From an uncultured Verrucomicrobiota bacterium (GTDB lineage Bacteria > Verrucomicrobiota > Kiritimatiellia > RFP12 > UBA1067): 64,000 nucleotides of DNA. The translations under genes were made by a program, and so were the position numbers. Location: positions 1,174-65,173 of the forward strand of contig CAMGEN010000002.1 of assembly GCA_946055075.1 (NCBI GenBank), written 5' to 3'. The notes beneath the pieces were generated by a model. That model had not been told where the DNA came from. It searched no databases and was given only the letters and a program-made list of their open reading frames with translations. Of the stretch, positions 18,032 through 64,000 are shown piece after piece. How positions within the stretch are numbered: the stretch's first letter is position 1; each line of letters opens with the position of its first letter.

Positions 18032-19303
18032 TCACAGACCGATTCGCCTGACCGCCGCCAGCAGCCTGTCCTTCGCATCCGACGCCGCCGGCCACCCGTC
18101 GTAGCCGTTGTCGTCACCGCCCTTCTCGTAGACCACCCTCCCGCCGATGACCGTCTTCACGACGTCACTTGCGTGCATGGAATTGACTACGAGACTGGGG
18201 ATATCGAGCATGGGCGTTAGGTGGATGCGGTCGAGATCGACGACGCAGAAGTCCGCATGCTTGCCCACGGCGATCTCGCCCGTGTCTTCCATTCCCAGCG
18301 CCTTGGCTCCGTTCCTGGTAGCCATGTCGATCACATCCCACGCCGGCAGCACCGTCGGATCTTTCGCCAGTCCCTTGTGGATCAACGAGGCGAGATGCAT
18401 CTCCTCGAACATGTCGAGATTGTCATTCGACGCGCAGCCGTCCGTGCCGAGCGCCACGTTGACGCCGAGCTCCATCGCCCGAACGACCCGCGCGAAACCG
18501 CTGCCGAGCTTCATGTTGCTCGTCGGATTGTGAACGAGCGAAACGCCCTTCTCCGCCATGATCCGGAAATCGTCGTCCGTACACCACACGCAATGCGCGG
18601 CGTAGCCGCCGTGATCAAGGAGGCCGGTCGAGGCGAGATATGCGATCGGAGTCTTCCCGTGTCTTTCGATGCACTCGCAGTGCTCCTTCTCCGTTTCCGA
18701 GACATGCACGTGCAGGGGACGCTTCAGCTCCCTGTTGGCTTCGGCCAGTCCGCGGCAGAACGCCTCGTCCGTCAGATACTCGGAGTGAATGCAGATGTCT
18801 TCGTGCACATCCCCCTTGACCTCGCGGTCAATCCATTCGTTCCAGCTCCGGCAGGAGCCGATGCAGTCCTCCAGTCGTCCCGGAACGAAGTTAAGTCCGA
18901 CGCGGCAGATGCGGCCTTTCATCCCCGCCTCCAGCAACGCCACGCCCGTCTCTCCGGGGAAGTCATACATGTCAGCGACGCAGGTCGTGCCGCCAGCGAG
19001 CATCTCCATGATACCCCAGACGGCACCAGCGCGGACGTCTTCCGGTGTCATCTTCGCCTCGACCGGGAAGATCGCCTCCTCCAGCCAGCGCTGCAAGGGC
19101 AGTCCGCCGCCCAGTCCCCGCACCAGCGTCATCGCCGTGTGACCGTGACAGTTGATCAGTCCGGGAAGGACGAGCAGGTTGGAGGACGAAGTTGAAGGTT
19201 GAGGTTGAGAATGGATTGCGGTAATCCTTCCGCCTTCAAACTCAATGCTGCCGAAGCCAACCTTGTGACCCGGCAGCACCATGTGGACGTTCTCGAACTT
19301 CAT
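18032..19303 (-). CDS. Amidohydrolase-superfamily deaminase (MtaD/TrzA/SsnA-like)
   Basis: Metal ligands HGHTAM, HVHVSET, and GTDGCASNDNLDMF. Confidence 0.8.
   Translation of the reverse strand: MKFENVHMVLPGHKVGFGSIEFEGGRITAIHSQPQPSTSSSNLLVLPGLINCHGHTAMTLVRGLGGGLPLQRWLEEAIFPVEAKMTPEDVRAGAVWGIMEMLAGGTTCVADMYDFPGETGVALLEAGMKGRICRVGLNFVPGRLEDCIGSCRSWNEWIDREVKGDVHEDICIHSEYLTDEAFCRGLAEANRELKRPLHVHVSETEKEHCECIERHGKTPIAYLASTGLLDHGGYAAHCVWCTDDDFRIMAEKGVSLVHNPTSNMKLGSGFARVVRAMELGVNVALGTDGCASNDNLDMFEEMHLASLIHKGLAKDPTVLPAWDVIDMATRNGAKALGMEDTGEIAVGKHADFCVVDLDRIHLTPMLDIPSLVVNSMHASDVVKTVIGGRVVYEKGGDDNGYDGWPAASDAKDRLLAAVRRIGL
19175..19211 (+). repeat. TCRACC-family element, inverted orientation, in-frame in the amidohydrolase
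   Basis: Plus strand CAGGTTGGAGGACGAAGTTGAAGGTTGAGGTTGAGAA. It shares both termini (CAGGTTG...GAGGTYGAGAA) with the copies at 38610 and 63655. Here it is translated on the TCAACC strand as SQPQPSTSSSN. Confidence 0.8.
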
Positions 19304-19308
19304 TTCGC

Positions 19309-20322
19309 TCAGACGAGTCCGCGCTTGATGAGGTGTTCGGCGATCTCAACCGCGTTGAGCGCGGCGCCGCGCAGGAGCTGGTCGCCCGAAACGAACATCT
19401 CGAGCCCCTTCTTGTCGTCGCGGCTGATGTCCTGACGGATACGTCCCGCGAGCACGTCGTACTTCGCGGTCGCGTCGAGAGGCATCGGATAACCACCGTT
19501 CAGCGGATCGTCCACGACCTTGACGCCCTCGCACTTCGCGAGCACCTCGCGAGCCATCTCCGGCGTCACGTCCTGCTCGAACTCGAGGTTGAGCGACTCG
19601 GAGTGGGCGCGGGCGATCGGCACGCGCACGCAGGTGCAGGAGAGCTTGAGCTCGGGATGATGGAGCATCTTGCGCGCCTCGTTGCGCATCTTGAGCTCCT
19701 CAAGCGTATACCAGTTCTCCTGATCGAACTTGTCGATGTGCGGGATCAGGTTGTACATCAGCTGATGCTGGAACGCCTTGACGGTCAGCGGTTCGCCCTT
19801 CGCATAGGCGTGAATCTGATCCTCTAGCTCGTTGAGACCGGGGGCGCCGGCGCCGGAGGCGGCCTGATAGGTCGAGGCGACGAGGCGCTTCAATCCGAAC
19901 GCCTTGTGCAGCGGTGCGACCGCCTCGAGCATGATCGCGGTCGTGCAGTTAGGATTCGCGATCACGCCCTTATTCCAGTCGAGATCTTCGGGATTGACCT
20001 GCGGGACAACCAACGGCACCTCGGGATTCTGGCGGAACGCGCGGGAATTGTCGATCATCTTCGCACCGGCCGCGACCACCGCGTCCTTGAGTTCGATCGC
20101 AACATCTGTCTTGCCCGCAAAGAGGACGATGTCGAGTCCTTGGAAGGAATCCTTGTCGGCCTTGAGCACGTGATACGTTTCGCCGAGGATCTCCTCATCG
20201 CGTTCACGCGAAGCGAACACCTGCACCGGACCCGCAAGCGGAAAATTCCGCTCTTTGAGGACCTTGATCATTTCCGTTCCGACGGCGCCGACGCCGACCA
20301 AACCGACCTTGTACTGTTTCAT
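19309..20322 (-). CDS. asd: Aspartate-semialdehyde dehydrogenase
   Basis: MKQYKVGLVGVGAVG...NPNCTTAIML...STYQAASGAG. Start moved to ATG 20322 (AAAGGAG 7 nt upstream). Confidence 0.92.
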   Translation of the reverse strand: MKQYKVGLVGVGAVGTEMIKVLKERNFPLAGPVQVFASRERDEEILGETYHVLKADKDSFQGLDIVLFAGKTDVAIELKDAVVAAGAKMIDNSRAFRQNPEVPLVVPQVNPEDLDWNKGVIANPNCTTAIMLEAVAPLHKAFGLKRLVASTYQAASGAGAPGLNELEDQIHAYAKGEPLTVKAFQHQLMYNLIPHIDKFDQENWYTLEELKMRNEARKMLHHPELKLSCTCVRVPIARAHSESLNLEFEQDVTPEMAREVLAKCEGVKVVDDPLNGGYPMPLDATAKYDVLAGRIRQDISRDDKKGLEMFVSGDQLLRGAALNAVEIAEHLIKRGLV

Positions 20323-20366
20323 TCGTTTACTCCTTTGAAATCTCGCGGTTCGCGATTCGTTGTTCG

Positions 20367-22178: not shown

Positions 22179-22188
22179 TTAGCGGCAT

Positions 22189-22197
22189 ATTATATCA
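22189..22197 (-). promoter_or_regulatory. Extended -10 promoter TGATATAAT upstream of lepA
   Basis: Preceded by a T5 run. 10 nt between TATAAT and ATG 22178. Confidence 0.6.
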
Positions 22198-22208
22198 AAA
22201 ATCCGCCG

Positions 22209-24070: not shown

Positions 24071-24081
24071 CAGGTTTTCAA

Positions 24082-24133
24082 CACCACAACTGTTCACTGG
24101 TCGCGACTCCCCGTTCACTGCTCACTGATCACT
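24082..24133 (-). repeat. Heptamer array at the TadE-like/aminopeptidase junction plus a shared 17-mer
   Basis: Plus strand gttcact gctcact gatcact (24113-24133) and gttcact at 24092. The 17-mer caccacaactgttcact (24082-24098) recurs at 29469-29485 with 1 mismatch. Confidence 0.85.
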
Positions 24134-26671: not shown

Positions 26672-26680
26672 CTTATGATT

Positions 26681-26689: not shown

Positions 26690-26692
26690 AAA

Positions 26693-28663
26693 CTAGTCGA
26701 TCTTGATCGACTCCAGTTCTGTTGCCGCCTCTTCCCAATCCGCGGTGTAACGATCGATTTCAAACTGGAGCGTCCGGACCTCTCGGTTCTTTGCCGCGAA
26801 GTCGGTCGTCGGTTTCGGATTGAAGAGCTCTTCGGAGGCCGCATCCAAAGCCGCCTGCAGTTCGTCGATCTTCTTCTCTGCCGTCTCCACCCTTTTCTTC
26901 AGCTCCTTCACCCTAGGCGCGATCTTCGCCCTTTCCGCCGCCCGCTGCTGGCGCAGTTCCTTCGACGTGAGATTAGGTGTAGGTGTAGATGATAGGTGTA
27001 CAGTGGAATTTTTAACTTCCACTGTCAACCTCGACCTAGCACCTCGACCTTCGTCCCGCTCTGCCTTTTTCTCGCAATAATAGTCGTAACCGCCGGGGTA
27101 CTTGTTAAGTCCGTCACGGGTAATCTCGAGGATGCTAGTCGCCACCGCCCGGACGAAATCAATGTCGTGGGAAACCAGGAGGATCGTGCCCTTGTACTGC
27201 TGGAGCGCCTCCTGCAGAAGGCGACGTCCGTCAAGATCGAGATTCGTCGTCGGTTCGTCGAGAAGCAGGAAATTCGGCGCGGTGAGGAAGAGGCGTAGGA
27301 ACGCGAGACGAATCTTCTCGCCGCCGGACAATACGCCCGCCGGCTTTTCGACGTCGTTCTCATCAAAGCCGAAGGCGCCGAGCTGATTGCGAAAGATCTT
27401 CTCGGGGCCGCCACCATGTGCGTCCCACGCGTTCTTCGCGTTGCGATAGACGGAAAGATCCGGAGGGATCGTCTCGGCGAATTCCTGAGAAAGATAGCCA
27501 GGAACTACGTTGTGGCCTAGAACCGCCTTGCCTTCAGTCGCGGGTCTCGTCCCCGCGATAATGCGCATCAGTGTCGTCTTGCCGAGTCCGTTGTACCCAA
27601 TCAGCGCGACCTTATCTCCGCGCGTGATATTGAATTCAAGCCCCCGGAAGACAAAGCGCGGAGAAGGAGCATAACAAAACCCGAGATTCTCGCAGCGGAA
27701 CATCTCAATGCCGCTCGGCGGCGGTTCGGCGAGACGGAGACGTCCCGAATTCGTGTAGCGCTTCGGCAGCACGATCCGTTCCTCGTCGATCTTGTCGATC
27801 AGCTTCTGACGGCTCTGCGCCTGCGCGGCCTTCGTCGCCTGCGCGCGGAAACGGTCGACGAACCGCTGCAGCTGCTCGCGATGGTGATCCTGATTTTCCT
27901 TCGCGGCCTTGAGGTGTTCGTAACGGACCTCGCGTTCGGTCAGATAATAATCGAGATTGCCCTCATACCGCGTTGCCGTGCCAGCATCGACTTCGACGAT
28001 GATGTTCGTAAGCGTACGTAGCAGATACCGGTCGTGAGAAATCAGCATCAGCGTTCCGTCATAAGCCTTAAGGAACTTCTGAAGCCAATCGACGGCAGGA
28101 AGATCGAGATAGTTCGAGGGTTCGTCGAGGAGCAGCAGATCCGGCTTCGAGGCGAGTACGCGCGAGAGTTCCGCACGCATGCGCCAGCCGCCGGAGAACG
28201 ACTTGAACGGCTTAGCGAACTCGTCGACCGTGAAGCCGAGACCGCCGAGCGCAATTTTCACCCGCGTCTCGATGTCATAACCACCAAGATGCTCGAATCG
28301 CGTCTGCAGTTCGCCGTAGCGCTTCATCTTCTGCGGATCGGTAAGATCCTGTTCCAGCTCGGTCATTTCCGCTTCCATCTCGGAAAGCCCGGGAATGCCG
28401 CGTAGCGAATATTCAAGTAGCGTCTCCTCGGGCGTGTCCGGCTCTGGGTTCTGACGCGTGAAGCCGATGCGCGGATCAGATTCGATGATAAGCTCGCCCT
28501 TGTCCGTTGACATTTCGCCGAGGATGATCTTAAAGAGCGTTGACTTGCCCGAACCATTCGGACCCACCACGCCGATGCGATCGCCCTTGTTGACGCGGAA
28601 CGTGACGTCCGTCAGGACGTCCTGATGTCCGTAATGAACCGATACCCCCTGAAAATCTAGCAT
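26693..28663 (-). CDS. ABC-F family ATPase (two ABC domains, no TM domain)
   Basis: Two Walker A sites (GPNGSGKST, GYNGLGKTT), two signature motifs (FSGGWRMR, LSGGEKIR), C-terminal coiled coil. Confidence 0.92.
   Translation of the reverse strand: MLDFQGVSVHYGHQDVLTDVTFRVNKGDRIGVVGPNGSGKSTLFKIILGEMSTDKGELIIESDPRIGFTRQNPEPDTPEETLLEYSLRGIPGLSEMEAEMTELEQDLTDPQKMKRYGELQTRFEHLGGYDIETRVKIALGGLGFTVDEFAKPFKSFSGGWRMRAELSRVLASKPDLLLLDEPSNYLDLPAVDWLQKFLKAYDGTLMLISHDRYLLRTLTNIIVEVDAGTATRYEGNLDYYLTEREVRYEHLKAAKENQDHHREQLQRFVDRFRAQATKAAQAQSRQKLIDKIDEERIVLPKRYTNSGRLRLAEPPPSGIEMFRCENLGFCYAPSPRFVFRGLEFNITRGDKVALIGYNGLGKTTLMRIIAGTRPATEGKAVLGHNVVPGYLSQEFAETIPPDLSVYRNAKNAWDAHGGGPEKIFRNQLGAFGFDENDVEKPAGVLSGGEKIRLAFLRLFLTAPNFLLLDEPTTNLDLDGRRLLQEALQQYKGTILLVSHDIDFVRAVATSILEITRDGLNKYPGGYDYYCEKKAERDEGRGARSRLTVEVKNSTVHLSSTPTPNLTSKELRQQRAAERAKIAPRVKELKKRVETAEKKIDELQAALDAASEELFNPKPTTDFAAKNREVRTLQFEIDRYTADWEEAATELESIKID
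26975..27056 (-). repeat. Composite in-frame repeat insertion in the ABC-F C-terminal region
   Basis: AGGTGT x3 (26975-26999), a perfect hairpin CAGTGGAA-N8-TTCCACTG (27001-27024), then tcaacc tcgacc tagcacc tcgacc ttcgtcc (27025-27056). Encodes EGRGARSRLTVEVKNSTVHLSSTPTPN. Confidence 0.85.
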
Positions 28664-29487: not shown

Positions 29488-30297
29488 TCACGGTGTCAGT
29501 ATCTCCAGCTCAATATCCTCTCTCCGCATCTGCGCCAATGCCTCGCGCATCGTCTCTTCGGCGAAGCGCGGAGTGTTGCAATCCTGCGAGAGATGCGCGA
29601 GCATCAGTTTCTTAAGCCGCGGCGAAGCGAACTTCTTCACAAGCTCCGCCGCCTCCCAGTTCGCGAGATGTCCGCGAGGACCTGCGATCCGTTGGACTAG
29701 GCACGGCGCGCGCCCGGAAGTGCGGAGCATCACTGGATCGTGATTTGATTCCAATGTCGCGATCGTCGCCTCTTGCAGCTTTACACCGATCGAATCGAGC
29801 GGCGTCCCGATATCCGTCCCATGAAAATACACTGGAGCTTCCACACCTGATGCCTGATCACCGATCACCGATCCCTTAATCAGGTACCCGACTGGATCGG
29901 ACGTATCATGAGGAATGGGAAACGGGTTGACCACCAACGGACCAATCTCGAACTCCTGTCCGTTCTCAAAGCAGACGAACGCGTCCTCTGGAATCCCCTT
30001 TCCGGCGATGATCGCCTCGGCGGTCATCATGTTCGCATAGACGGGAACATCGTGTTTCTTCAGGAAAGTGCAGAGTCCGTCAACATGATCCCCGTGCGAA
30101 TGCGTGATCAGCACCGCCTGGATCATGTCACAGGACACGTTGGCACGGAGCGTCTGACACTCGGCGCCAACTTTTTCCTTGATGCGCCGGGTGAGATCGC
30201 GATAGGAAAGCCCGCAGTCGATGAGGATAACGGTACCCTCGTGTTCGACGAGATACGCGTTGCCCTTGGACGAAGAAGCGAGCGGAATTACATTCAC
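29488..30297 (-). CDS. MBL-fold metallo-hydrolase
   Basis: HSHGDHVDG motif and overall beta-lactamase-fold spacing. Confidence 0.8.
   Translation of the reverse strand: MNVIPLASSSKGNAYLVEHEGTVILIDCGLSYRDLTRRIKEKVGAECQTLRANVSCDMIQAVLITHSHGDHVDGLCTFLKKHDVPVYANMMTAEAIIAGKGIPEDAFVCFENGQEFEIGPLVVNPFPIPHDTSDPVGYLIKGSVIGDQASGVEAPVYFHGTDIGTPLDSIGVKLQEATIATLESNHDPVMLRTSGRAPCLVQRIAGPRGHLANWEAAELVKKFASPRLKKLMLAHLSQDCNTPRFAEETMREALAQMRREDIELEILTP
29842..29876 (-). repeat. Heptamer array in-frame in the MBL-fold gene
   Basis: Plus strand cacacct gatgcct gatcacc gatcacc gatccct, encoding GSVIGDQASGVE. Confidence 0.8.
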
Positions 30298-32893: not shown

Positions 32894-34210
32894 TCATCCA
32901 CGCTCAAACGCCCGATGCGCGATGTCCTTACGATAGAACATCCCGTCAAAGGAGATGCTGGAGATGCGCTCATAAGCGTTATCAACGGCCTCACGGAGAT
33001 TCGTGCCGAGCCCGGTGACGCTCATCACTCGTCCGCCGCTCGTCACGACCTTGTCGCCGTCGAATCTCGTTCCACAGTGGAATACGATGGAATCGCCTTC
33101 CCCCCATTCCCCTTTCCCCGTTCCCCTGATTTCCTTGCCCTTCTCGTACGAACCAGGATAGCCGTCGGAAGCAAGAATGACGGTCGCGGCAGTTTCATCA
33201 CGAACCACGACATCCTCCTCCTTAAGACAACCACTTGCGGCGTGTAGAAGCGCAGTCGCAAAGCTGCCGCCGAGACGCGGAAGCACCGCTTCGGTCTCAG
33301 GATCGCCGAACCTAGCGTTAAACTCGACGACGTTGACATCGCTGCCGCTGATGGCGGTTGGACCATGCGGATTGGAGTGTTCGTTATTGACCATAAGCCC
33401 CGCATAGAGGATACCGCGGTAGACGATACCACGCTTCTTGAGCTCGTTAACGACGGGCATGATGATCTTATCCTTGATCATCGGAAGCTTGTCGCTCGTA
33501 ATCACGGGAGCAGGCGAATACGCGCCCATGCCACCGGTGTTCGGGCCCTTGTCGCCGTCGAAAACCCGCTTATGGTCCTGCGAACTAGGCAGCAACACAG
33601 CGTCATTGCCGTCCACCATCGCGAGAATTGAGCACTCTTCACCGTGGAGGAACTCCTCGATCAACACCTCGGCGCCGGCGGCACCGAACTTGTTGCCGAC
33701 GAGCATATCGTCAATCGCCGCCTCTGCCTGGTCGTTCGTCTCGGCGACGATCACGCCCTTGCCGGCGGCGAGGCCGTCCGCCTTGATGACGACGGGGAGT
33801 CCGTACGCAGGAAGTGCCGCCTTTGCCTTCACGGCATCAGTGAATACTTCGGCCTTGCCCGTCGGGACGCCTGCCGCGTCCATGATCTCCTTGGCGAAGC
33901 GCTTGGAACCTTCCATGCGCGCGCCGGCGGCGACGGGACCGAACGCCTTTATCCCCGCCTTCTCCAGCGCGTCCACGAGCCCGATCACCAGCGGGGCTTC
34001 GGGACCGACCACGACGAGGTCAGGTTTTTCCGCCTTCGACCAAGCGACAATGCCCTCGACATCGTCCGCCTTGATCGCGACACATTCTGCGACCTCGGCG
34101 ATACCGGCGTTACCGGGCGCGGCATAAAGCTCGTGCTCTTCAGGATCGTGCGCAAGTCTCCACGCAATCGCATGTTCACGTCCGCCAGAACCGACTACCA
34201 GAATCTTCAT
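32894..34210 (-). CDS. purD: Phosphoribosylamine-glycine ligase
   Basis: MKILVVGSGGREHAIAWRL...ATP-grasp...RFGDPE. ATG 34210 has GGAGGA 8 nt upstream. Confidence 0.95.
   Translation of the reverse strand: MKILVVGSGGREHAIAWRLAHDPEEHELYAAPGNAGIAEVAECVAIKADDVEGIVAWSKAEKPDLVVVGPEAPLVIGLVDALEKAGIKAFGPVAAGARMEGSKRFAKEIMDAAGVPTGKAEVFTDAVKAKAALPAYGLPVVIKADGLAAGKGVIVAETNDQAEAAIDDMLVGNKFGAAGAEVLIEEFLHGEECSILAMVDGNDAVLLPSSQDHKRVFDGDKGPNTGGMGAYSPAPVITSDKLPMIKDKIIMPVVNELKKRGIVYRGILYAGLMVNNEHSNPHGPTAISGSDVNVVEFNARFGDPETEAVLPRLGGSFATALLHAASGCLKEEDVVVRDETAATVILASDGYPGSYEKGKEIRGTGKGEWGEGDSIVFHCGTRFDGDKVVTSGGRVMSVTGLGTNLREAVDNAYERISSISFDGMFYRKDIAHRAFERG
33099..33125 (-). repeat. (GGGGAAN) heptamer array in-frame in purD
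   Basis: Coding strand GGGGAACGGGGAAAGGGGAATGGGGGG, encoding GTGKGEWGEG. Same reading frame as the ligA copy. Confidence 0.9.
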
Positions 34211-35072: not shown

Positions 35073-35998
35073 GGCAAAACAATCTTCTGTCCGGTTCTGA
35101 TACGTCCGTCGGTAGAGATCGTCGTCTTGTTGGCATCGCGAATCTTCTGCCACGCGGAACGAAGGCCGTAAAATCGCACCGCAAGCTTGTAAAGGGTGTC
35201 TCCGTCCTGAACCACATATTCTGCAGGTCGCGGCTCATGAGGCGGCTCCGGTCGAGCATCCTTCTTCGCAAAGATCGACTTCGTCGGCTTCGACGACACC
35301 TCAAACGGAGCATCGGACTTCTCCTCGTCGCCATCCAGAAGAAGATTCTTCACATCCTCCGAAACCCGAATCCTATCCGATGGGCTTTCATCCTCATCAT
35401 CAAGTAACGCGGTCTCAGTCATGATCACAGGGCGCGACGAGTCTTCCGACACCTCACCGGTCAGCATCCGCCGCATCCGCTCAAGATCCTTGGCACCCGC
35501 CTCGGCCTTGGCCAGCGCACGTTCAAGACGCTTCTCAAGATCCTTGTTCGCCTTCTCCAGCTCTACGACCCGTTCGGCAAGCTCCGCATTGCGAGATGCC
35601 GCAGCGTCATCACCTGCAGAATACTTCTTGGTCAATTCTGGACCCAATAGCCGTTCACACTGGACGATTCGGTCTTTGGCAAGTCCAGACTTCTCACCAG
35701 TCTTGTCCTGCGCCATAAACTCCCGGTAATTGCACAAAGCACCAAGATAATCCTTTTTCACATCCTGCAACAAACATGCCAACTGGAATCTCGCCGACGC
35801 ATTACCTGGAGTGGCGCAAACCACCCGTTCGAGCCCAGCCACAGCCTTATCGACACGCCCTGCCGCATAATCATCCATCGCAGCGCGATAAATTGAATCA
35901 GAGCGTTCGCGATCAAGCGCGCGACTGCCGATGTAATCGCAGCCAACGGAAACAATAAGCGAAAGCGAGAAAACCCAAAGTGCGGAATTACTCTTCAT
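35069..35998 (-). CDS. Lipoprotein with TPR-like region, coiled coil and C-terminal LysM domain
   Basis: Start taken at ATG 35998 (MKSNSALWVFSLSLIVSVGC lipobox). LysM: YVVQDGDTLYKLAVRFYG...GQKIVLP. Confidence 0.7.
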   Translation of the reverse strand: MKSNSALWVFSLSLIVSVGCDYIGSRALDRERSDSIYRAAMDDYAAGRVDKAVAGLERVVCATPGNASARFQLACLLQDVKKDYLGALCNYREFMAQDKTGEKSGLAKDRIVQCERLLGPELTKKYSAGDDAAASRNAELAERVVELEKANKDLEKRLERALAKAEAGAKDLERMRRMLTGEVSEDSSRPVIMTETALLDDEDESPSDRIRVSEDVKNLLLDGDEEKSDAPFEVSSKPTKSIFAKKDARPEPPHEPRPAEYVVQDGDTLYKLAVRFYGLRSAWQKIRDANKTTISTDGRIRTGQKIVLP

Positions 35999-37727: not shown

Positions 37728-37736
37728 ATTATATCA
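37728..37736 (-). promoter_or_regulatory. Extended -10 promoter TGATATAAT upstream of scpA
   Basis: Preceded by a T5 run. 8 nt between TATAAT and ATG 37719. Confidence 0.6.
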
Positions 37737-42820: not shown

Positions 42821-42829
42821 ATTATATCA
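42821..42829 (-). promoter_or_regulatory. Extended -10 promoter TGATATAAT for the rplY-rpsF-ssb-rpsR-rplI unit
   Basis: Preceded by a T5 run. 75-nt leader to ATG 42745. Confidence 0.6.
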
Positions 42830-44086: not shown

Positions 44087-44109
44087 CCTTTAACCTCCAG
44101 CCTTCAGCC
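44082..44109 (-). repeat. Heptamer array (x4) filling the VIT-vWA/ribBA junction
   Basis: Plus strand ttcaacc tttaacc tccagcc ttcagcc. On the minus strand it supplies the SD (GGAGG) and the TTG start, and it abuts the TAA stop at 44110-44112. Confidence 0.88.
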
Positions 44110-46533
44110 TTATTTGATTTCAATCTCGCCGATCGGATGCTTGTCCTTCGGCTTGTCCAGCCGCAGGGACATGATCTGGCGCTTCTCGTCCTTCGTTCCC
44201 CAGCCCGTGTACACGGTCGCCGAAATCGTCGCCGCGCCGGTAAGCTGCTGACGATGAGAAGCGAAATAATTGGCGAGGATCTTGTATACGCCCTTGTCAG
44301 CGGTCTTGCGCAGATACTCCTCCGGACCATATCCGGTCGTCACGTCTTCCGACACGAAGCCGCCGGAAGAGGTTCTGCGATGTCCGTAGAACGCCTCTTC
44401 TCCATCCGGTTCGAGAACATGCAGATCGACGTCCGTCTCGTCCGTATCCCACGAGAGCATGATGCGGAGCTCACACGGCATATCGCGGCGGAACGCGGCA
44501 TCGATTTCAGGAAGCTTCCAGTCAAGTCCGTTCTCCTTGACCCACGCATAGACGCCGTTCAGCTCCTCAAGCGCGAAAACGCTCGTCTGAAGATCGTTGC
44601 CGCGGCGTCCGCTACGACGGGCAACGGGATTGAACGCAGCGTCCTTAAGCAGTAAGACCGCCTCGTTGATATCACGGGAATCCTTCTTCTCCTTGCCGCG
44701 CTCGGTAAGGACGAGCGCAAGGTCGCGCCTGGACTGCGGCTCCTCTGGACGCATCTCGAGGACGTGGCGGAACGCCTCGACCGCCTCGTCGTAGAGTCCC
44801 GCCTCGCGCAGACGCCACGCCATCGTGCGCCACATCCCAACATCCTCAAGTTTCATCTCCGAAAGATTGGAGATGATCCGCGCACCGAGCTTCAGGTCTT
44901 TCGCCTTGAAGAACCAGCCCGCGCAATCGAGATAGAACGCCGGCGAATTGCCATAGACTTCACGCTGCTTGAGATATTCGGCATAGGCACAGCCGTTCGC
45001 CACGCCACTCATCGCCTTCAGATACGGCATATCCGGATTCCACGCGGCGATCTTCACGTTCGCGACATTCTCCGCAGCCTCGGATCCGGACTTTGCCTTC
45101 GCGACGCGCCCCCCGTACGCGGAAACCCAGCGCACCCCGCCGACGGGTGCAAGCCCTTCCGCCGCCGGAGGCACCGGCTCTTCGGCCTCTTCCACCATCG
45201 GAGCGGACTCCTCCCTCGAAGCCGCCCTTAACGAAGACGACCTCGCCACGCCATCGAAGAGTCCGCTCTTAGGAGTCTTCTTAGGCGGCACCGGATCGTT
45301 CCACCACTTCACCCTCTCCTGCCAGTAGTTGAGCAGCTGCGAACGATGCTCCGCCTTCGCCTTTTCCGCGGCGATCGGATCGTCTTCGGATGCGCGCCAC
45401 TTCTTCCACTCGTCGTAGAAGCTCATGCATTTCGGCGGCTCGATCTTGTAGGTCTTGTACTGCTCGAGCGATTCAAGGACGATCATCGAAGTGACGGACG
45501 ACGCGACGCCGTATCTTCTGCCGATTTCAACAAGCTCGTCCTTATGAGACTGCGCATCATCGGCGAGATCTTCGACCCGGCACGCCGCCCATGCCGCAGC
45601 AAGAAGCGTTCCCTCCTTCGGCTCCGCATCCGGCTTCTCGTCCTTATCAAGTTTCCTCACTGAAATCTGCCGCGGTTTCGATTCCTTGTATTCGTCAGAA
45701 AAGACGAAGCAGGCGGCTGGCAGTTGGCAGTCGGCGGACTTCAGTGCCTTTCCGAGACAGGTGCCGCCGTCGTAAACGAGTGAATCAACCGCCTTGAGGA
45801 GATCCATGCGATTGGAGAACCTGAGCGGTTCTTCAATGACATTGCGAAACACGGTCAAAGTGAAATCACCATTCTCTGGCAGACATTCAAGCAGATTGCG
45901 GTCGGACTGGAAGCTGTCCTTGCGGGACATCGAAGCGTCCCAGTAGATCACGGCCTTCGCCGCATTGCGAAGCCGGTCGGCAAGCGGAATGGACCGAGCC
46001 GACCCTTTGCCAGGGTATTCTCCGACGAACACCTCGTCGCCGAACTTCTCATAGACCTTCTTCGTATCCTTCACGGTCACCTCGTCGGCAATGATGTAAG
46101 CGACCATCGCCTTGCGGGGAGTGTTCGGCATCAGGGGATAGATACGCGTCTTCCAGACATTCCCCTTCACATGCTCGACGATGCCCGGATCGACACCTTG
46201 TCTCTTTTCGTTCTCGAAGGCGACACGGGCCTCTTTCTTGGGGACGACGACGCCGGGTACCATCGATCCGTTGACCTCGAGCTGATAGCCGCAGACGGTC
46301 GCGCCGTCTGGAACGGGGAATTCGAGCTCGCCCTCGAAGGCCCGTCCGTTGGGGTTAGTAAAGACGATCGTCGTCTCGACGCGACGGAAGAGTCCGTTAT
46401 CTTCGACAATCTTCGCGCTCGTCTCGACGACGACCGGTTTCTCATCCGCCTTAATGACGGAGGGATGGAATATCGGCTCGGGATTGGACACGATGAGAGA
46501 CTGGGCAAGCATCACGACTGGTAGAATATTCAT
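44110..46533 (-). CDS. Large VIT + vWA-like + TPR protein with a C-terminal YfaP/DUF2135-like beta domain
   Basis: VIT-like N-terminus (TIVFTNPNGRAFEGELEFPVPDGATVCGYQLEVNG...VWKTRIYPL). TPR region (EAVEAFRHVLEMRPEEPQSRRDLA). C-terminus LSWDTDETDVDLHVLEPDGEEAFY. Confidence 0.7.
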   Translation of the reverse strand: MNILPVVMLAQSLIVSNPEPIFHPSVIKADEKPVVVETSAKIVEDNGLFRRVETTIVFTNPNGRAFEGELEFPVPDGATVCGYQLEVNGSMVPGVVVPKKEARVAFENEKRQGVDPGIVEHVKGNVWKTRIYPLMPNTPRKAMVAYIIADEVTVKDTKKVYEKFGDEVFVGEYPGKGSARSIPLADRLRNAAKAVIYWDASMSRKDSFQSDRNLLECLPENGDFTLTVFRNVIEEPLRFSNRMDLLKAVDSLVYDGGTCLGKALKSADCQLPAACFVFSDEYKESKPRQISVRKLDKDEKPDAEPKEGTLLAAAWAACRVEDLADDAQSHKDELVEIGRRYGVASSVTSMIVLESLEQYKTYKIEPPKCMSFYDEWKKWRASEDDPIAAEKAKAEHRSQLLNYWQERVKWWNDPVPPKKTPKSGLFDGVARSSSLRAASREESAPMVEEAEEPVPPAAEGLAPVGGVRWVSAYGGRVAKAKSGSEAAENVANVKIAAWNPDMPYLKAMSGVANGCAYAEYLKQREVYGNSPAFYLDCAGWFFKAKDLKLGARIISNLSEMKLEDVGMWRTMAWRLREAGLYDEAVEAFRHVLEMRPEEPQSRRDLALVLTERGKEKKDSRDINEAVLLLKDAAFNPVARRSGRRGNDLQTSVFALEELNGVYAWVKENGLDWKLPEIDAAFRRDMPCELRIMLSWDTDETDVDLHVLEPDGEEAFYGHRRTSSGGFVSEDVTTGYGPEEYLRKTADKGVYKILANYFASHRQQLTGAATISATVYTGWGTKDEKRQIMSLRLDKPKDKHPIGEIEIK

Positions 46534-46590: not shown

Positions 46591-46614
46591 CCCATTCCCT
46601 ATTCCCTATTCCCC
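46591..46614 (-). repeat. Intergenic GGGAAT(A) heptamer array with four G-runs
   Basis: Minus strand GGGGAATAGGGAATAGGGAATGGG, about 58 nt upstream of ATG 46533. Confidence 0.9.
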
Positions 46615-48855: not shown

Positions 48856-50981
48856 AGGATATTGCCCTTTCTATGAATTCGTTCAATACGTTTTTCCGCC
48901 TCTGCGGACGCTGGCACCGACGCAGTAACGACAAGACGCAGTACCGCAACCGCCTGCGCGTCGGAGCCACGGCTTTCGTATTCTTCAGCGAGTCGAAAAG
49001 CCGCGCGCGAAAAAGCCGCACGCGCATCATCGTCGTAGGGGATACCTTCAGTCCTCCCGTCACGATATGCCAAAACCACCCGCGAATAATACTCGTCGAT
49101 CGCCTGATCCATCCGCTTCAGACGTTCAAGCGTCTTGGCGAGCTTATAAGAGAGCCGGATCTTGACGGACGGCGAAAGCTTCTCGCCTGAACGGAGCGCC
49201 GTGTAGGCCTCCAAGGCCTGGCGGTAACGAACCGGATCATCCGCTCCCATCGCAAACAACGCATCCGCCCTCAGCAACTGCGCACGAAGGCGAAGCGTCG
49301 CGTCGGCCTCCGCCGCAATTGACACGCGTTCAGCGACGAGAATCGACTCATCGAACCGCGCAAGCTCAATCAGCGACTCGGCCTGCAACAGCATGCCCTC
49401 GACAGAGGAGCGAGTCCCGGGGCAAGTCGAATCAAGCCGCGTGGCGTTTTGCACCGTCTTTTGGAAATCGCCCGCCGCAAAGGCTGCCCGAGTCGCCCAC
49501 AGCAACGGTTCTGACGCAACGGACGGATCTTCAGCCCGGTCCGCACAAGTGCTGAAACCAGCCTCCGCTTCGCGATACCGTCCGCGGTTGTAAAGATACT
49601 TGGCAAGCCACATGGACGCATCAAAACGCACCCGCCGGTCCTCCGAACTAGAAGAAATCTCAACTGCCTTCTTCTCCGCCGCAGCATCCTGATTGAGCCC
49701 ATACAGACAGACCATGTCGTAGTACGCCATCCGCGGAGCCAAAGAAGAATCACGCTTCGCGACCTCCGCGAAGATCGTTCGCGCATCGTCGAAACGATAC
49801 GCAGCGAAAGCATCGTACCCCTTCTGTTCAAGCTCCCGCACCGACACCATTTCCTTGACCTTCCTCGCCGCCACCGTATCCGAGTAACTTGCAAGAGCCT
49901 CGCGATAACGGGACATTGACTCCTCACGCTTGCCGAGATTGGCGAGGACGTCTCCCGACTTCACCATCGCAAGCGCCTTCGTCTCGTCATCAGCCGACAT
50001 CGCAAGCGCAATCGAGAACTCGGTTAGCGCCTCTTCATTACGCCCAGTCTCGGCCAGCGCCCAACCGATACCAAGCCGCACGGACGCCTCTTTCGCCGTC
50101 TCCGGCCAGGTCTCCATCGCCTCGCGATAAGTCTGAATGCAGACGGCGTAATCGCCACGTGAGAGCTCCACATCGGCCAACGACAGAAACGCCTCCTTCG
50201 CCCCGCGGAAATCCGGAGAATCCTTAGCGATACGGCGGATAATCGACGCGCCCTCCGAAAAGCTGCCCTTCTCGCGAACAAGCAGCATGCCGAGTTGAAT
50301 ACCGGCGAAACGAACGACATCGGGATCAGTGGACTCCGAAACCACTCGGCGAAGCGCTGCAACGTCAGCAAGGTTAGCAGCCGCAATCGACACCGCCGAT
50401 TCAGGAGCATTCGTCATCGCAACCACTTCCCGCCAGAGCGCCTCCGCCTCGGCGTCTTCCCCGCGAGATTTGTGAATCGCTGCGGACACCATCTTCGAAT
50501 CCGCACCACCGCCACTGGCTTCAAGCTTCGATAGCGCCGCATCGACATAACCCTCGCGCCGAAGCACCGCCGCATGCAACAATGAGGCGTCCGCAGCAAT
50601 GACACCGCGGGAGAAGTCGGTAGATTCGAGCAGCCGTCGCGCGGCATCGTGTTCACCGGTACGATAAAGCGCCGCCGCCTTATAGTATGCGAATTCCGGG
50701 ACTTCAGACTTGCCGTACGCCTCAACCGTGGACAGCACATCCGACCACTTGTGCTCGCGCGCGAAGCTCTCGAGCACCACGATCTTTGCAAGGTCACCGT
50801 CTGCTTTACGGGCATGTGTGCGCGCGACCTCCCAGAGGCCATCCCGCAGCGCCTGCCGCGCAACGTCGATTTCGCCAGCATAAGCAGCCGAAATCGAATG
50901 AAGCATGAAAAACGAAAGATGAAGAACGAAAAGAAGGCAGTGCCTTCCGCAATTCCTCATTCTCAATTCTTCAATCTTCAT
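48852..50981 (-). CDS. Large secreted TPR-repeat protein
   Basis: Signal-like CLLFVLHLSFFMLHSISAAYA, followed by many TPR-like helices. TAATG overlap with era. Confidence 0.75.
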   Translation of the reverse strand: MKIEELRMRNCGRHCLLFVLHLSFFMLHSISAAYAGEIDVARQALRDGLWEVARTHARKADGDLAKIVVLESFAREHKWSDVLSTVEAYGKSEVPEFAYYKAAALYRTGEHDAARRLLESTDFSRGVIAADASLLHAAVLRREGYVDAALSKLEASGGGADSKMVSAAIHKSRGEDAEAEALWREVVAMTNAPESAVSIAAANLADVAALRRVVSESTDPDVVRFAGIQLGMLLVREKGSFSEGASIIRRIAKDSPDFRGAKEAFLSLADVELSRGDYAVCIQTYREAMETWPETAKEASVRLGIGWALAETGRNEEALTEFSIALAMSADDETKALAMVKSGDVLANLGKREESMSRYREALASYSDTVAARKVKEMVSVRELEQKGYDAFAAYRFDDARTIFAEVAKRDSSLAPRMAYYDMVCLYGLNQDAAAEKKAVEISSSSEDRRVRFDASMWLAKYLYNRGRYREAEAGFSTCADRAEDPSVASEPLLWATRAAFAAGDFQKTVQNATRLDSTCPGTRSSVEGMLLQAESLIELARFDESILVAERVSIAAEADATLRLRAQLLRADALFAMGADDPVRYRQALEAYTALRSGEKLSPSVKIRLSYKLAKTLERLKRMDQAIDEYYSRVVLAYRDGRTEGIPYDDDARAAFSRAAFRLAEEYESRGSDAQAVAVLRLVVTASVPASAEAEKRIERIHRKGNIL

Positions 50982-50986
50982 TACAC
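50952..50986 (-). repeat. ATTCNNN heptamer array (x5) across the era/TPR-gene junction
   Basis: Plus strand attcctc attctca attcttc aatcttc attacac. Both candidate ATGs (50981, 50960) and the era TAA fall at unit boundaries. Confidence 0.8.
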
Positions 50987-51934
50987 AAGCTCTCCCAAAT
51001 ACCCCATCTCAGCGAGCAGTCGCTCGTTCTTCATCCAGTTGCGTTCCACCCGAACATTGATCTCGAGCTCGACCTTGAGCCCGAAGATCTCCTTGAGCTC
51101 CTTCTCCGCCGCCTTGCGCACCCCCTTCACGGTCGATGCTCCGCGGCCGATCGCCATCGGCTTCTGCGACTCGCGGTTGACCAGCGCATCGACCTGCACC
51201 ACCCACTTGTCCGTCTTCTCTTCGATACGCTTGACCAGAATCCCGAGTTCATGCGGCAACTCCTGGAAAAGCTTGCCGATGTACTTCTCGCGGATCACGT
51301 CCGCGATCGTGAGCTTGCGCGGATAATCGGTGACGATATCGTCATCGAACAGTGCCTCCCCATCTTCAGCGAAATTAAAAAGCGCATCCATCACCGCATT
51401 AGCCCCACCTTCGGTCGTGGAGATGGACTTAATCCACACGGGAGACAAGTCGAAGTCCAGAGTCGAAGTCGAAGCAATTCCCTGTTCGACCTCGGCTTTC
51501 GACTTCGACTCCGCCTGGGCCTCGACCCAAGCGGACTTGTATTCGTCTTCGAAAAACGGACTCTTATCCGCCTTGTTAAGCACAAATACGACCTTCTCCG
51601 GGTGCTCCTTGGAAACGCGCTGCATCCATCCGATGTCCTCAAGCTGCGGCGGCTGCGAAGCGTCGAAGACCACGCAAGTGACGTCCGTTCCCGCAGCACT
51701 GCGACGCGCCATGCGGTTAAGGAGACGACCGAGAGTGCCTACGGCCTTGTGAAGGCCGGGAGTATCCAGCAACACGAGCTGCCCCCGCGGATCGGACACG
51801 ATCCCGCGGATGGTGTTACGGGTAGTCTGTTCGACCGGAGACACGATCGAAACCTTCTCTCCCACAAGCGCATTCACGAGCGTCGATTTCCCGGCGTTCG
51901 TCCTGCCTACAACTCCGACAACGGCAACCTTCAT
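50981..51934 (-). CDS. era: GTPase Era
   Basis: GRTNAGKSTL, DTPG, NKAD, C-terminal KH domain (VIREKYIGKLFQELPHEL). Confidence 0.93.
   Translation of the reverse strand: MKVAVVGVVGRTNAGKSTLVNALVGEKVSIVSPVEQTTRNTIRGIVSDPRGQLVLLDTPGLHKAVGTLGRLLNRMARRSAAGTDVTCVVFDASQPPQLEDIGWMQRVSKEHPEKVVFVLNKADKSPFFEDEYKSAWVEAQAESKSKAEVEQGIASTSTLDFDLSPVWIKSISTTEGGANAVMDALFNFAEDGEALFDDDIVTDYPRKLTIADVIREKYIGKLFQELPHELGILVKRIEEKTDKWVVQVDALVNRESQKPMAIGRGASTVKGVRKAAEKELKEIFGLKVELEINVRVERNWMKNERLLAEMGYLGELV
51460..51511. repeat. Perfect 14-bp inverted repeat with a 24-nt spacer inside era
   Basis: GAGTCGAAGTCGAA (51460-51473) pairs with TTCGACTTCGACTC (51498-51511). The spacer gcAATTCCCTGTTCGACCTCGGct resembles the start of the 38610 element. 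Encodes part of AESKSKAEVEQGIASTSTLDFDLS. Confidence 0.92.
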
Positions 51935-53664: not shown

Positions 53665-53757
53665 TGGCGGAGGGAGGGGGATTCGAACCCCCGATACGGG
53701 TTTACCCCGTATGACGATTTAGCAAACCGTTGCCTTCAGCCACTCGGCCATCCCTCC
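53665..53757 (-). tRNA. tRNA-Ser (anticodon GCU), 93 nt with encoded CCA
   Basis: Hand-folded: acceptor GGAGGGA/TCCCTCC, anticodon stem ACGGT/ATCGT with loop TTGCTAA, long variable arm, T arm GGGGG-TTCGAAT-CCCCC, GCCA end. Confidence 0.93.
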
Positions 53758-53778: not shown

Positions 53779-53787
53779 ATTATATCA
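53779..53787 (-). promoter_or_regulatory. Extended -10 promoter TGATATAAT for tRNA-Ser, overlapping the nagA stop codon
   Basis: The TGA of nagA (53785-53787) is the TG(A) of TGATATAAT. 21 nt to the tRNA 5' end. Confidence 0.6.
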
Positions 53788-60252: not shown

Positions 60253-60264
60253 TATGAATTCTCC

Positions 60265-61617: not shown

Positions 61618-61623
61618 TGGCGC

Positions 61624-62349: not shown

Positions 62350-62379
62350 CTGATTTATTCCTTTCGCTGGTGGTTTAGA

Positions 62380-64000
62380 TTAGAATTCAAGGGCCTCGTA
62401 AACCATGGCGATGAATTCGCCGTAGTTCATGCGCTTCTGCTCCATGGTATCACGGTCACGGACAGTGAACGTGCCATCCTGGACCGACTGGGCATCGACG
62501 GTGATGCACCAGGGCGTGCCAGCCTCGTCCTGACGGCGATAGCGGCGGCCGATGGCACCGGAGACATCCCACTGACAGTTAAACTTCTTCTGGAGCTTCG
62601 TGAAGAGGTCGCGCGCGAACTTCATCTGCGCCTCGTCCTTCTTGATGAGCGGGAAGACCGCCACCTTGACCGGGGCGACCTTCGGGGAGAAATGCAGCAC
62701 CGTACGGACATCCTCCTTGCCCTTCTCGTCCGTAAGCTTCTGCTCCTCATACGCCTCGCAGAGAAGCGCGAGCATCAGACGGTCGACGCCGGCAGACGGC
62801 TCGATGACGTGCGGGATGTACTTGCCGTCGAAAAGGTTGAGGCAGAACTTCTCGGCTGCGGCCGCAATCTCCGCCTTCTGCTCGTCGGTGAACGGAACGG
62901 ACTTCCCGGCCTTCGCATCCGCAGCCTTCTGCTTGCGGTCGAGCCACTCGGCCTGGGTCTTCGCGATAAACGCCTTACGCGCCGCCTCGTCGAGCTTCTT
63001 CGCCGCCTGCTTCAGCGGATCGTCGAAGAACATCTGCGACTCGCCGGACCACTTCTGATGCTGCGTGAGGTCGAAGTCGCTGCGCGCGGCGATACCCTCG
63101 AGCTCCTGCACGCCGAACGGGAACGAGTATTCGATATCAACCGTCGCGCGGGCGTAGTGGGCGAGCTCGTCCGGCTTCTGCCAGTACTCGACGAAATGCT
63201 CGGTCGGCAGACCCACCGCATTGAGGAAACGCTTACGCTGCTCGACCCAGTACTTGTGCCAGACCTCCCAACCCCAGTCGTCCTGCACGGGACCGTTGAT
63301 GTCGGGATTGTCGGCGAGCGTCACCACATGACCGTGGAGGATCTCCACCGCCTCATCAGGACGGATGAAGAACTCGAGCTCCATCTGCTCGAACTCGCGG
63401 CTGCGGAACGTGTAGTTGCGCGGCGTGACCTCGTTGCGGAAGCTCTTGCCCATCTGCGCGATGCCGTAGGGGACCGCCATACGGGAGGTCGCCGTAACGT
63501 TGTTGAACTGCGCGAAGATCGCCTGGGCGGTCTCGGGCCTGAGATACGCGACGTTCGAAGGATCCTCGATCGGACCAACGATCGTCTTGAACATGAGGTT
63601 GAACGGCTTCGGCTCGGTGAGCTCGCCGCCGCAGTACGGACAAAATTCACCAATTTCTCGACCTCGACCTCCAACCTCTACCTGTGCCTTCGGCACCGGC
63701 TTCTTCTTCTGATCGGCGTAGATATCCTTCACCTGGTCGGCGCGCATCAGCTTCTTGCAGTCCTTGCACATCGTCATCGGATCGGCGAAGGTGTCGAGAT
63801 GGCCGGACGCCTTCCAGATCTTCGGATTCATGATGATCGTCGCATCGAGACCCGCGACATCCTCGCGTCCGCGGACCGTAGCCTGCCACCAGGCCTGCTT
63901 CACATTCGCCTTCAGCTCGCAACCAAGCGGACCGTAATCCCAGAAGCCGGGCATGCCGCCGTAGATCTCGGACGAGTGATAAATGAATCCGCGACGCTTG
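62380..64000 (-). CDS. glyQS: Glycine-tRNA ligase (dimeric class II type); 5' end beyond the window
   Basis: The frame is open upstream of the listed Met (…RRGFIYHSSEIYGGMPGFWDYGPLG). Motif 2/3 pattern and a C-terminal anticodon-binding domain. Confidence 0.92.
   Translation of the reverse strand, partial: KRRGFIYHSSEIYGGMPGFWDYGPLGCELKANVKQAWWQATVRGREDVAGLDATIIMNPKIWKASGHLDTFADPMTMCKDCKKLMRADQVKDIYADQKKKPVPKAQVEVGGRGREIGEFCPYCGGELTEPKPFNLMFKTIVGPIEDPSNVAYLRPETAQAIFAQFNNVTATSRMAVPYGIAQMGKSFRNEVTPRNYTFRSREFEQMELEFFIRPDEAVEILHGHVVTLADNPDINGPVQDDWGWEVWHKYWVEQRKRFLNAVGLPTEHFVEYWQKPDELAHYARATVDIEYSFPFGVQELEGIAARSDFDLTQHQKWSGESQMFFDDPLKQAAKKLDEAARKAFIAKTQAEWLDRKQKAADAKAGKSVPFTDEQKAEIAAAAEKFCLNLFDGKYIPHVIEPSAGVDRLMLALLCEAYEEQKLTDEKGKEDVRTVLHFSPKVAPVKVAVFPLIKKDEAQMKFARDLFTKLQKKFNCQWDVSGAIGRRYRRQDEAGTPWCITVDAQSVQDGTFTVRDRDTMEQKRMNYGEFIAMVYEALEF
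63655..63684 (-). repeat. TCRACC-family 30-mer in-frame in glyQS
   Basis: TTCTCGACCTCGACCTCCAACCTCTACCTG, encoding QVEVGGRGRE. Same frame and orientation as the murC-murB copy. Confidence 0.92.

Follow-up and report, generated by a model that had tools for sequence, protein, structure and literature searches.

To our knowledge, there is essentially one textbook example of a repeat that has proliferated in frame inside essential genes, namely the Rickettsia palindromic elements (RPEs), whose mechanism is unexplained. RPEs are about 100-150 bp long, fall into ten families that each encode a conserved peptide, and are represented by 44 insertions within genes of R. conorii (Ogata et al. 2000, 2002, as summarised in PMC10969869); their hosts are obligate intracellular Alphaproteobacteria (PMC10969869). 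Here, we describe a dispersed repeat, built of tandem hexamers and half of a palindromic core, that is translated in frame within unrelated housekeeping genes of an uncultured member of the Kiritimatiellia. The analysis was centred on a stretch of 64,000 nucleotides from contig CAMGEN010000002.1 (assembly GCA_946055075.1), referred to as the window; related loci and contigs are denoted by L numbers. We rate the chance as about even that these sequences constitute an RPE-like in-frame repeat family, whose modules spread from locus to locus by copying, change through slippage and pass a filter for open reading frames (ORFs).

Like RPEs, the repeat is dispersed in frame in unrelated housekeeping genes without destroying them and occupies structurally tolerant positions. 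It includes hairpin-forming palindromes, its copies are kept at orthologous sites of related species while decaying over time, and its mobility mechanism is as unexplained as that of RPEs. It differs in that the elements are 35-110 nt long, consist of tandem 6-7-nt units and show slippage polymorphism. No constant peptide is encoded (at least five frame/orientation combinations are used), half-elements occur besides hairpins, and the host, of the Kiritimatiellia, is a free-living gut bacterium in the PVC superphylum. Membership of the RPEs is excluded by size, inconstant peptide, tandem-unit build and taxon, as judged from the descriptions of RPEs.

Several other classes of repeats were considered. 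Repetitive extragenic palindromes (REPs), which are tied to a RAYT gene, and the REPINs formed from them share with the present elements short imperfect palindromes (20-40 nt), an occurrence as single units or as inverted pairs forming a longer hairpin, and a species-specific consensus; here, single units are found in murC, glyQS and an amidohydrolase gene, and inverted pairs with a common core in era and an ABC-F gene. REPs are extragenic and carry GTAG or CGTC tags (PMC3733652), whereas the elements of the window are mostly intragenic and translated, with nearly all copies lying inside ORFs. Intragenic transposable elements of the miniature inverted-repeat type (MITEs), such as ERIC, BOX, QMITE1 and the Anabaena MITEs (PMC10969869), are also small non-autonomous repeats able to form in-frame fusions with host ORFs. 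However, terminal inverted repeats, target-site duplications and related insertion sequences (IS) belong to MITEs, while neither terminal inverted repeats nor a duplication were found at the glyQS junction, and the present elements are far smaller than typical MITEs. Heptamer direct repeats, such as the cyanobacterial STRR sequences and the TAACTGA repeats of Beggiatoaceae (PMC4679880), are similar in having tandem 6-7-nt units that are abundant in a lineage and change in copy number by slippage; the known ones are mainly intergenic, pure direct arrays, whereas those described here are in frame and possess a core and a fixed interruption common to several loci. PARCELs (PMC2996958) likewise consist of coding DNA with dyad symmetry dispersed among genes, but they encode a 25-residue amphipathic domain, in tandem, in accessory or surface proteins, as opposed to an inconstant peptide in core housekeeping enzymes. 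Judged by analogy, REPs/REPINs, intragenic MITEs, heptamer repeats and PARCELs each match one or two traits, and RPEs are the closest analogue. The literature searched contained no account, either for Kiritimatiellia or for the PVC group, of elements like these.

Anatomy and reading frames of the repeat

The window was 99.1% identical to a 112.5-kb pig-gut metagenome contig, ERZ940760 k127_4428, which extended the sequence covered for this species by 10 kb (74 kb in total), and 99.0-99.3% identical to the other conspecific contigs (L001, L060 and L061). Its named GlyRS homologues carry the label Kiritimatiellia. The same repeat alleles recur across many independent ENA, Logan and NCBI assemblies and contigs, which excludes an assembly artefact.

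A sequence-only reading of the window had listed five sequences as copies of one element, and all of them were located where it had placed them, in murC-murB, glyQS, the amidohydrolase gene, the ABC-F gene and era (Table 1). Its proposal of a dispersed family at the DNA level, present in both orientations and several frames within unrelated housekeeping genes, was borne out. All host genes of these copies lie on the minus strand, and the reading frame is open through every copy in murC-murB, glyQS, the amidohydrolase and ABC-F genes, era, ribBA and a TPR gene. The 30-mers of murC-murB (38610-38639) and glyQS (63655-63684) are indeed 28/30 identical and share one reading frame, which yields QVEVEGRGRE and QVEVGGRGRE, respectively. 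Within the window, the 30-mer consensus with up to three mismatches allowed matched these two sites and no others (0 matches in 100 shuffles), and an all-against-all comparison of both strands returned them as the sole pair of 30-mers with at most two mismatches (0 in 5 shuffles). The 16-nt identical run to which significance had been attached is a weak argument, with about a dozen other 16-mers recurring in the window; the significance of the match rests on the 28/30 identity together with the common internal structure.

This structure was apparent from eight copies, drawn from four genomes and six genes and aligned in the CRACCT orientation, comprising those of the murC, glyQS, amidohydrolase and ABC-F genes of the window, two from L002 murC, one from a gluQ-RS-like gene of L012 and one from L036. 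The half-element, about 35-38 nt in length, follows the plan ATTCC(N)CTNT + (CRACCT)2 + 1 nt + (CAACCT)2, such that a common leader related to ATTCC(N)CT(G/C)T is followed by CRACCT CRACCT, an extra base (usually T) and CAACCT CAACCT. The 1-nt interruption lies at the identical place in all eight copies, which independent microsatellite growth would not be expected to yield. An nhmmer profile of the half-element was built from seven copies, and hits above 23 bits were taken as full-length. Such hits were obtained only in the window (murC-murB, 33.4 bits) and conspecific contigs, L002 (two), L012 (two, in different genes), L144 ribBA and the odd contig L017. Moreover, identical 26-28-mers were found in different genes of different genomes (L002 murC and L012 gluQ-RS).

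The three clean 30-mers (murC, glyQS and amidohydrolase) showed no fold (z ~0). The proposed likeness to palindromic elements holds for the copies in era, ABC-F and the TPR gene, which are true hairpins, and fails for these three, which are non-palindromic half-elements; the relation between the two forms resembles that of REP and REPIN. As the murC copy retains the AGGGAAT of the hairpin core, the leader of the half-element corresponds to one half of that core. The hairpins, 80-110 nt in length, consist of two inverted modules around a short loop, with a non-repetitive core, ACAG.GGAAT-N(5-9)-ATTCC.CTGT, that is present in the ABC-F element of the window and also in three further species (L142, L144 and L146), at their era sites. 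Searches with the core pattern yielded 7 hits, 4 of them independent, versus 0-1 in shuffles. The degenerate ABC-F copy (27017-27056) of the sequence-only reading is real and represents the right arm of a hairpin (26966-27060; -38.1 kcal/mol, z -5.5) that is composed of a left arm, (TAGGTG)n, a core, ACAGTGGAATTTTTAACTTCCACTGT (27000-27025), and a right arm, CAACCTCGACCT-A-GCACCTCGACCT. Compared with E. coli YheS, this element adds 14 residues ahead of the C-terminal coiled coil. In era, the fragment previously described as the spacer of an inverted repeat is present, but it in fact belongs to a hairpin (51440-51520; -39.6 kcal/mol, z -3.7), of which it comprises the shortened core and the beginning of the right arm; the 26-nt arms of this hairpin (51448-51473 and 51485-51510) are 85% complementary. 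The TPR-gene hairpin just downstream of era (-32 kcal/mol, z -4.7; orthologous hairpin of L142, z -9.0) has a core, AGGAATTGCGGAAGG, that resembles the era core.

The era site was also compared across species. The window sequence (-44.8 kcal/mol, z -5.0 in this comparison) and those of L144 (77% amino acid identity to the window Era; -48.2 kcal/mol, z -5.8) and L146 (76%; -57.1 kcal/mol, z -8.3) all fold strongly, and in L144 and L146 folding is kept while the arm units change on both sides, with L146 carrying GGTGAA/TTCACC where the window has GTCGAA/TTCGAC. In L142 (93%; -24.5 kcal/mol, z -1.8), arm complementarity is lost: the left arm and core are kept, whereas the right arm is of the kind borne by the ABC-F element of the window, which suggests exchange or recombination at the core. 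Because the closer relative has lost complementarity, selection for the hairpin is not absolute. RNAalifold, applied to the four era-site elements, recovered the core stem alone because the arms differ in length and permit no column-by-column alignment, and arm complementarity was judged from the individual folds. In the JGI era loci (L062-L141), the linker is also variable and mostly filled with other arrays (GGAGTT, GGGGAAC or proline-rich); few loci have the core, and the set was therefore of no use for covariation. A census of long inverted repeats gave a density not above that of control phyla (6-10 versus 7 per 100 kb), a count that is uninformative for this family because terminators dominate it. 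An Rfam search of the window returned no match to the repeat elements.

Translation of the copies uses at least five frame/orientation combinations, and the unit is therefore DNA rather than a peptide motif. In the amidohydrolase gene, the copy has the opposite orientation and is read SQPQPSTSSSN, as noted earlier; the SQPQPSTS... reading is shared by L002 murC and L012 gluQ-RS. The second site of L002 murC gives LNLDLQPQP and the second gene of L012 PSTSTSNLNL; QVEVEGRGRE is the reading of window murC and glyQS, EGRGARSRLTVE that of window ABC-F and RRSRSEVEVD that of L144 ribBA. Pure CAACCT would read GGT TGA in the frame that murC and glyQS use, as does the ABC-F arm in its first half. At these would-be TGA positions, the window lineage has CGA or GCT, and L059 and L004 have GGA, while the 'A' form is kept where the frame reads GTT GAG or AGG TTG. 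These codons reveal a filter for stop-free units, which accounts for the TCGACC/TCAACC mosaic that the sequence-only reading had described.

Site histories and similarity between loci

At the glyQS site, about 45 close homologue clusters, including L057 (89.5% nucleotide identity to the window) and L058 (83%), read PQPKVAGAEFFCPYCGG, whereas the window species has PVPKAQVEVGGRGREIGEFCPYCGG in every 555-aa allele; the insert is also present in L148-L150. Its absence from these homologues, including L057, marks the glyQS copy as a recent, lineage-specific gain on the basis of sequence comparison. Relative to the empty sites of L057 and L058, the filled site shows a net increase of 24 nt, with ~17 nt replaced by ~41 nt, and the altered segment, to which EIGE and a small hairpin upstream also belong, extends to about 63640-63700. 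The empty site already holds AGGTCG. The idea that copies add residues relative to orthologues therefore applies to glyQS, where the gain is without counterpart in close relatives, and not to the amidohydrolase, in which the copy replaces native sequence. The amidohydrolase segment is ~9 residues shorter than in 15 family representatives, with the repeat standing in place of the usual xxIDxxGxx stretch, so that an interpretation of this copy as an added loop was rejected; it is fixed in 15/15 same-cluster alleles.

The murC half-element lies at a gapped, variable position with respect to solved MurC structures. In relatives that are 60-80% identical, this site carries (GTCGAA)-type arrays (L002 and L003) or GGAGAAAAAAGGTGGAGG (L004), and in more distant relatives it forms a short loop. 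Within the species, the murC allele P0266 (L060 and L061; 99% nucleotide identity) contains one extra GGTCGA-type hexamer and reads EDRGRGRE; alleles differing by one hexamer point to slippage. Other indel sites of murC-murB in relatives are occupied by other 6-7-nt units and some hairpins, such as that at 5735-5835 of L002 (-52.8 kcal/mol, z -8.1).

The Era linker is ~22 residues longer than in solved Era structures. Some insert is found here in nearly all of the 120 homologues, a few lacking it, and central deletions occur in close strains. The AlphaFold model of Era (mean predicted local distance difference test [pLDDT] score 65.7, with residues 151-160 below 50) is too weak to place the insert on the protein surface. 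At the ribBA site, L144 has (AGGTCG)4 followed by ACAGTGAAG (24.5 bits by nhmmer), and the ribBA linker of L146 consists of a GGTGAA-type array that has its units and a 13-nt periodicity in common with the left era arm of the same genome.

Comparisons between copies gave higher values for different genes than for the same gene. Identity was 0.94 between the paralogous murC and glyQS copies of the window, versus 0.67 and 0.58 between the murC copy and the orthologous sites of L003 and L004, respectively, and 0.56 between the glyQS sites of the window and L059; the L059 glyQS and L004 murC copies were again more similar (0.81). Paralogous similarity thus exceeds orthologous similarity among the copies compared. 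The glyQS site of L059 (78% DNA identity to the window) reads AAGGTGGAGAAAAAAGGTGGAGGTGGAGGTGAG, matching the L004 murC-site insert GAGTCGGAGAAAAAAGGTGGAGGGGGA, and a second lineage may accordingly carry its own variant at both sites, provided that L004 and L059 share a lineage. Furthermore, the era arm of the window, AGTCGAAGTCCAGAGTCGAAGTCGAAG, and the insert in L003 murC agree at 26/27 positions, and related copies reside in other genes of related genomes, namely L002 murC (two), L012 gluQ-RS and a second L012 gene, and L144 ribBA.

An exact-pattern scan with TCTCRACCTCRACCTYCAAC of 185,579 species genomes, among which the window's own genome was apparently not included, returned 52 single hits from many phyla. 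In the 49 hits from other phyla, the match is confined to the 20 nt searched (14-20 bits by profile), and these hits are thus regarded as due to chance. Separately, a full-length half-element match with leader (TTCCATTCTCGACCTCAACCTTCAACCTCGACCT, 32.7 bits) was observed at positions 965-998 of L017, a contig labelled Limosilactobacillus gorillae (GC 52%) whose bin is a Lactobacillaceae genome obtained from a gorilla sample; it may be a mis-binned Kiritimatiellia-like contig or may reflect a wider host range of the element.

Proposed process and alternative explanations

In the process that we propose for this RPE-like family, modules would be copied from locus to locus by a template-directed process that needs no dedicated enzyme, for example microhomology-mediated template switching or ectopic conversion over short patches, for which the native AGGTCG at an empty glyQS site could provide a seed. 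Enzyme-free copying is favoured because the single empty/filled junction is ragged, lacks a duplication and starts from this native AGGTCG. Modules would persist only at tolerant protein sites (linkers, variable loops and termini) and as stop-free variants of the frame used. They would then change rapidly in place, by slippage of hexamers and heptamers, by arm-to-arm templating that keeps hairpins complementary, by central deletions and by exchange between copies. We infer that these sequences are not useful to their host but selfish or neutral. More tentatively, they may form a so far undescribed class of micro-elements, in which 35-nt half-hairpin modules (hexamers plus core) spread into coding regions and are homogenised per genome, through a cognate enzyme that recognises the core or through transposase-free templated insertion, with a stop-free variant in each lineage.

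Several observations weigh against the proposed family. The filled/empty comparison at glyQS, a single site, revealed neither a target-site duplication nor a clean boundary, and the 'EIG' that follows the array in both the window and L059 could reflect one old gain and many losses instead of two gains. At most sites (murC residue 380, era and ribBA), related arrays in relatives that are 60-80% identical imply an old origin of the copies, which could have diverged where they stand. Presence/absence polymorphism was not seen within the species for the amidohydrolase, ABC-F, murC and glyQS copies, all of which are fixed. A common lineage of L004 and L059 could not be proven. The copy number is small, with ~3 half-elements, 3 hairpins and some degenerate copies in the 74 kb of this species; the additional 10 kb beyond the window contained no further copy, and exact matches never exceeded 1-2 per GTDB representative genome. 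Finally, low-complexity hexamer arrays inflate similarity where a unit is common.

A serious rival, albeit an unlikely one, is an enzyme-driven mobile element, non-autonomous and MITE- or REP/REPIN-like, that is moved by an HUH/Y1 RAYT-like or IS200/IS605-type single-strand transposase recognising the core, the variant of each lineage co-evolving with the enzyme. Recognition of this kind would fit the conserved palindromic core flanked by variable arms, the single and inverted-pair forms (recalling REP versus REPIN), the species-specific consensus variants and the new copy at a formerly unoccupied glyQS site. However, the annotated genes of the window, whose annotation is partial, include no transposase-like gene, the glyQS copy has no defined termini in addition to lacking a target-site duplication, and the elements are intragenic, unlike REPs.

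Somewhat less probable again is purely local expansion of simple sequence, in which tolerant loops and linkers independently grow microsatellites of hexamers or heptamers and quasi-palindromes by replication slippage and intramolecular template switching, the copies resembling each other only because few stop-free units are favoured. The one-unit length polymorphism within the species, the many unit types at the same sites in relatives (AGTGAAG, GAGTTAA, GCAGTGA and GGGGAAC), the central deletions in era alleles and the AGGTCG native to the empty glyQS site are all in line with this explanation, as is the enrichment of period-7 arrays in the clade (per 100 kb, 9.4 in the window and 38 in the loci of close relatives, versus 3.8 in control loci and 0-4 in shuffles). 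Local growth leaves unexplained the 1-nt interruption and leader common to eight copies, the 28/30 pair with the same mixed unit order that is unique in the window, the identical 26-28-mers shared across genes and genomes (L002 murC and L012 gluQ-RS), and the non-repetitive core common to the ABC-F and era hairpins.

We consider it improbable that the elements are maintained by a selected function, be it of hairpins or purine-rich GAGGT/GGAGG-like arrays in mRNA or DNA (RNase III or regulatory stem-loops, Shine-Dalgarno-like pauses or protein-binding sites) or of the peptides as flexible linkers. Function could explain why era arm complementarity is kept through two-sided changes among orthologues that are 76-77% identical, why the sites are often inter-domain linkers (era, ribBA and ABC-F) and why GAGGT occurs in the coding-strand units of murC, glyQS, ABC-F and ribBA. 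It is weakened by the L142 era site, whose arms are no longer complementary despite a 93% identical protein, by several close era alleles that have the centre deleted or lack the insert, and by the fact that most GlyRS relatives do without it. In addition, both orientations are used, leaving RNA motif and peptide both inconstant, and Rfam matches none of the elements.

Chance low-complexity similarity or an assembly artefact, with which the common 16-nt exact repeats of the window and the chance-like matches of other phyla to the 20-nt pattern might agree, is effectively refuted by the lack of matches in 100 shuffles, the uniqueness of the pair in the window, the recurrence of the same sequences in many independent assemblies and the confinement of full-length profile hits to the clade (plus L017). 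Two further candidates were set aside: a CRISPR-spacer-like or intein-remnant origin was dropped, the anatomy showing no matching features, and a replication-oriented polar motif (Chi- or KOPS-like) was rejected, given that both orientations occur on one replichore with a uniformly negative GC skew.

The elements display RPE-like behaviour in an unrelated, abundant gut lineage with hundreds of metagenomic relatives, which supply filled and empty sites, lineage-specific variants, slippage alleles and compensatory arm changes. Comparative genomics can therefore address how the elements are copied, stay stop-free and create protein loops and linkers. The inserts also inflate apparent divergence and length variation in murC, glyQS, era, ligA and purD, which serve as markers for the phylogeny and annotation of metagenome-assembled genomes. 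If the micro-element reading is true, they would also provide a natural setting in which to study the acquisition of new loops by proteins.

Further arrays and other features of the window

The coordinates of the elements, of additional short arrays and of the host genes are compiled in Table 1.

Table 1. Repeat elements, short arrays and host genes in the window.
Feature	Position	Strand	Remarks
Half-element, murC-murB, residues about 380-391	38604-38639	+	ATTCCCTTCT + CGACCTCGACCT + T + CAACCTCAACCT + G; gene on - strand, read QVEVEGRGREGN
Half-element, glyQS	63653-63684	+	read on - strand as QVEVGGRGRE; recent gain, as judged from relatives
Half-element, amidohydrolase	19175-19216	-	CRACCT strand is the coding strand, read HSQPQPSTSSSNL; second half degenerate; 29.0 bits
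Full hairpin, ABC-F (YheS-like), between second ABC domain and C-terminal coiled coil	26966-27060		read RDEGRGARSRLTVEVKNSTVHLSSTPTPN
Full hairpin, era, linker between GTPase and KH domains	51440-51520		arms (GTCGAA)n / (TTCGAC)n, shortened core CAGGGAATTGC; read AESKSKAEVEQGIASTSTLDFDLS
Hairpin of TGAAGAA-like heptamers over start codon and N-terminus (MKIEELRMRNCGRHCLLFVLHLSFFM), TPR gene immediately downstream of era	50900-50985		TRF arrays
Degenerate copy, ribBA inter-domain linker	43448-43486	-	contains AGGTCGAGGAACGAGGAGGAGGTCGACAGCGG
Heptamer array (ATTCCTA on +, GAATTAG on coding strand), murC-murB	38463-38494	-	read RIRKCELGIRN; L003 same site (GAGTTAA)n
(GGGGAAY)n heptamer array, in frame, LigA (NAD-dependent DNA ligase)	9722-9760	-	QGTGNGERGTGNGE; within 28-residue segment absent from L146 orthologue
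(GGGGAAN)n heptamer array, in frame, purD	33096-33127	-	RGTGKGEWGEG; L003 sequence here unrelated
(ATTCCCT)3 array, intergenic	46594-46613	+	unit equals the core half, ATTCCCT, present in murC and era
(CTTCAAC/CAACCTT)-like heptamer array	44081-44111	+	across VIT-domain gene stop and ribBA start; intergenic and gene ends
murC-murB fusion	37812-39776	-	host gene
glyQS	62380-63954	-	host gene; N-terminus extends past window
Amidohydrolase, MTA/SAH-deaminase-like	18032-19303	-	host gene
ABC-F protein, YheS-like	26693-28663	-	host gene
era	50981-51934	-	host gene

The fused murC-murB ORF varies in length from 588 to 754 aa among homologues that are 60-80% identical. This variation involves at least eight indel hot spots with peptides encoded by simple repeats, far above the level of neighbouring genes. 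At the C-terminal end of the ScpB gene (35988-37016), a long TCA/TCATCN-type array (35995-36057) encodes an acidic Asp/Glu tail, in place of which L003 has (GTCGAA)n. A metallo-beta-lactamase-fold gene (29488-30297) contains (GATCACC)2.6 at 29856-29873, read GSVIGDQ, in a 10-residue segment that L003 lacks. The same gene has a 16-residue insert relative to L003, and a further C-terminal stretch of 55 residues is unaligned since the L003 locus ends.

Upstream of glyQS, beyond the window end (positions 1-2765 of L148), the flank is strain-variable and constitutes a putative defence or mobile island adjoining the conserved block. In L148 and L150, it carries a gene for a Tn7 TnsA-like/S24 peptidase protein and an AbiEii toxin gene, in place of which L149 has a type I restriction HsdR-like gene.

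The sole Rfam match in the window was a tRNA gene at 53668-53757 (minus strand). An extended -10 consensus, TGATATAAT, occurs in 6 copies versus 0.09 expected, all on the minus strand (2986-2994, 17995-18003, 22189-22197, 37728-37736, 42821-42829 and 53779-53787). Every copy is located on the gene strand, 7-76 nt 5' of a start codon or tRNA. Because it lies only 7-11 nt before the starts at 17988, 22178 and 37719, the mRNAs beginning there are probably leaderless. A 36-nt unit is tandemly duplicated at 6138-6213 (2.1 copies with 90% identity), in the part of a secretin gene that encodes the N-terminal region, and specifies APVEANSEETVA twice.

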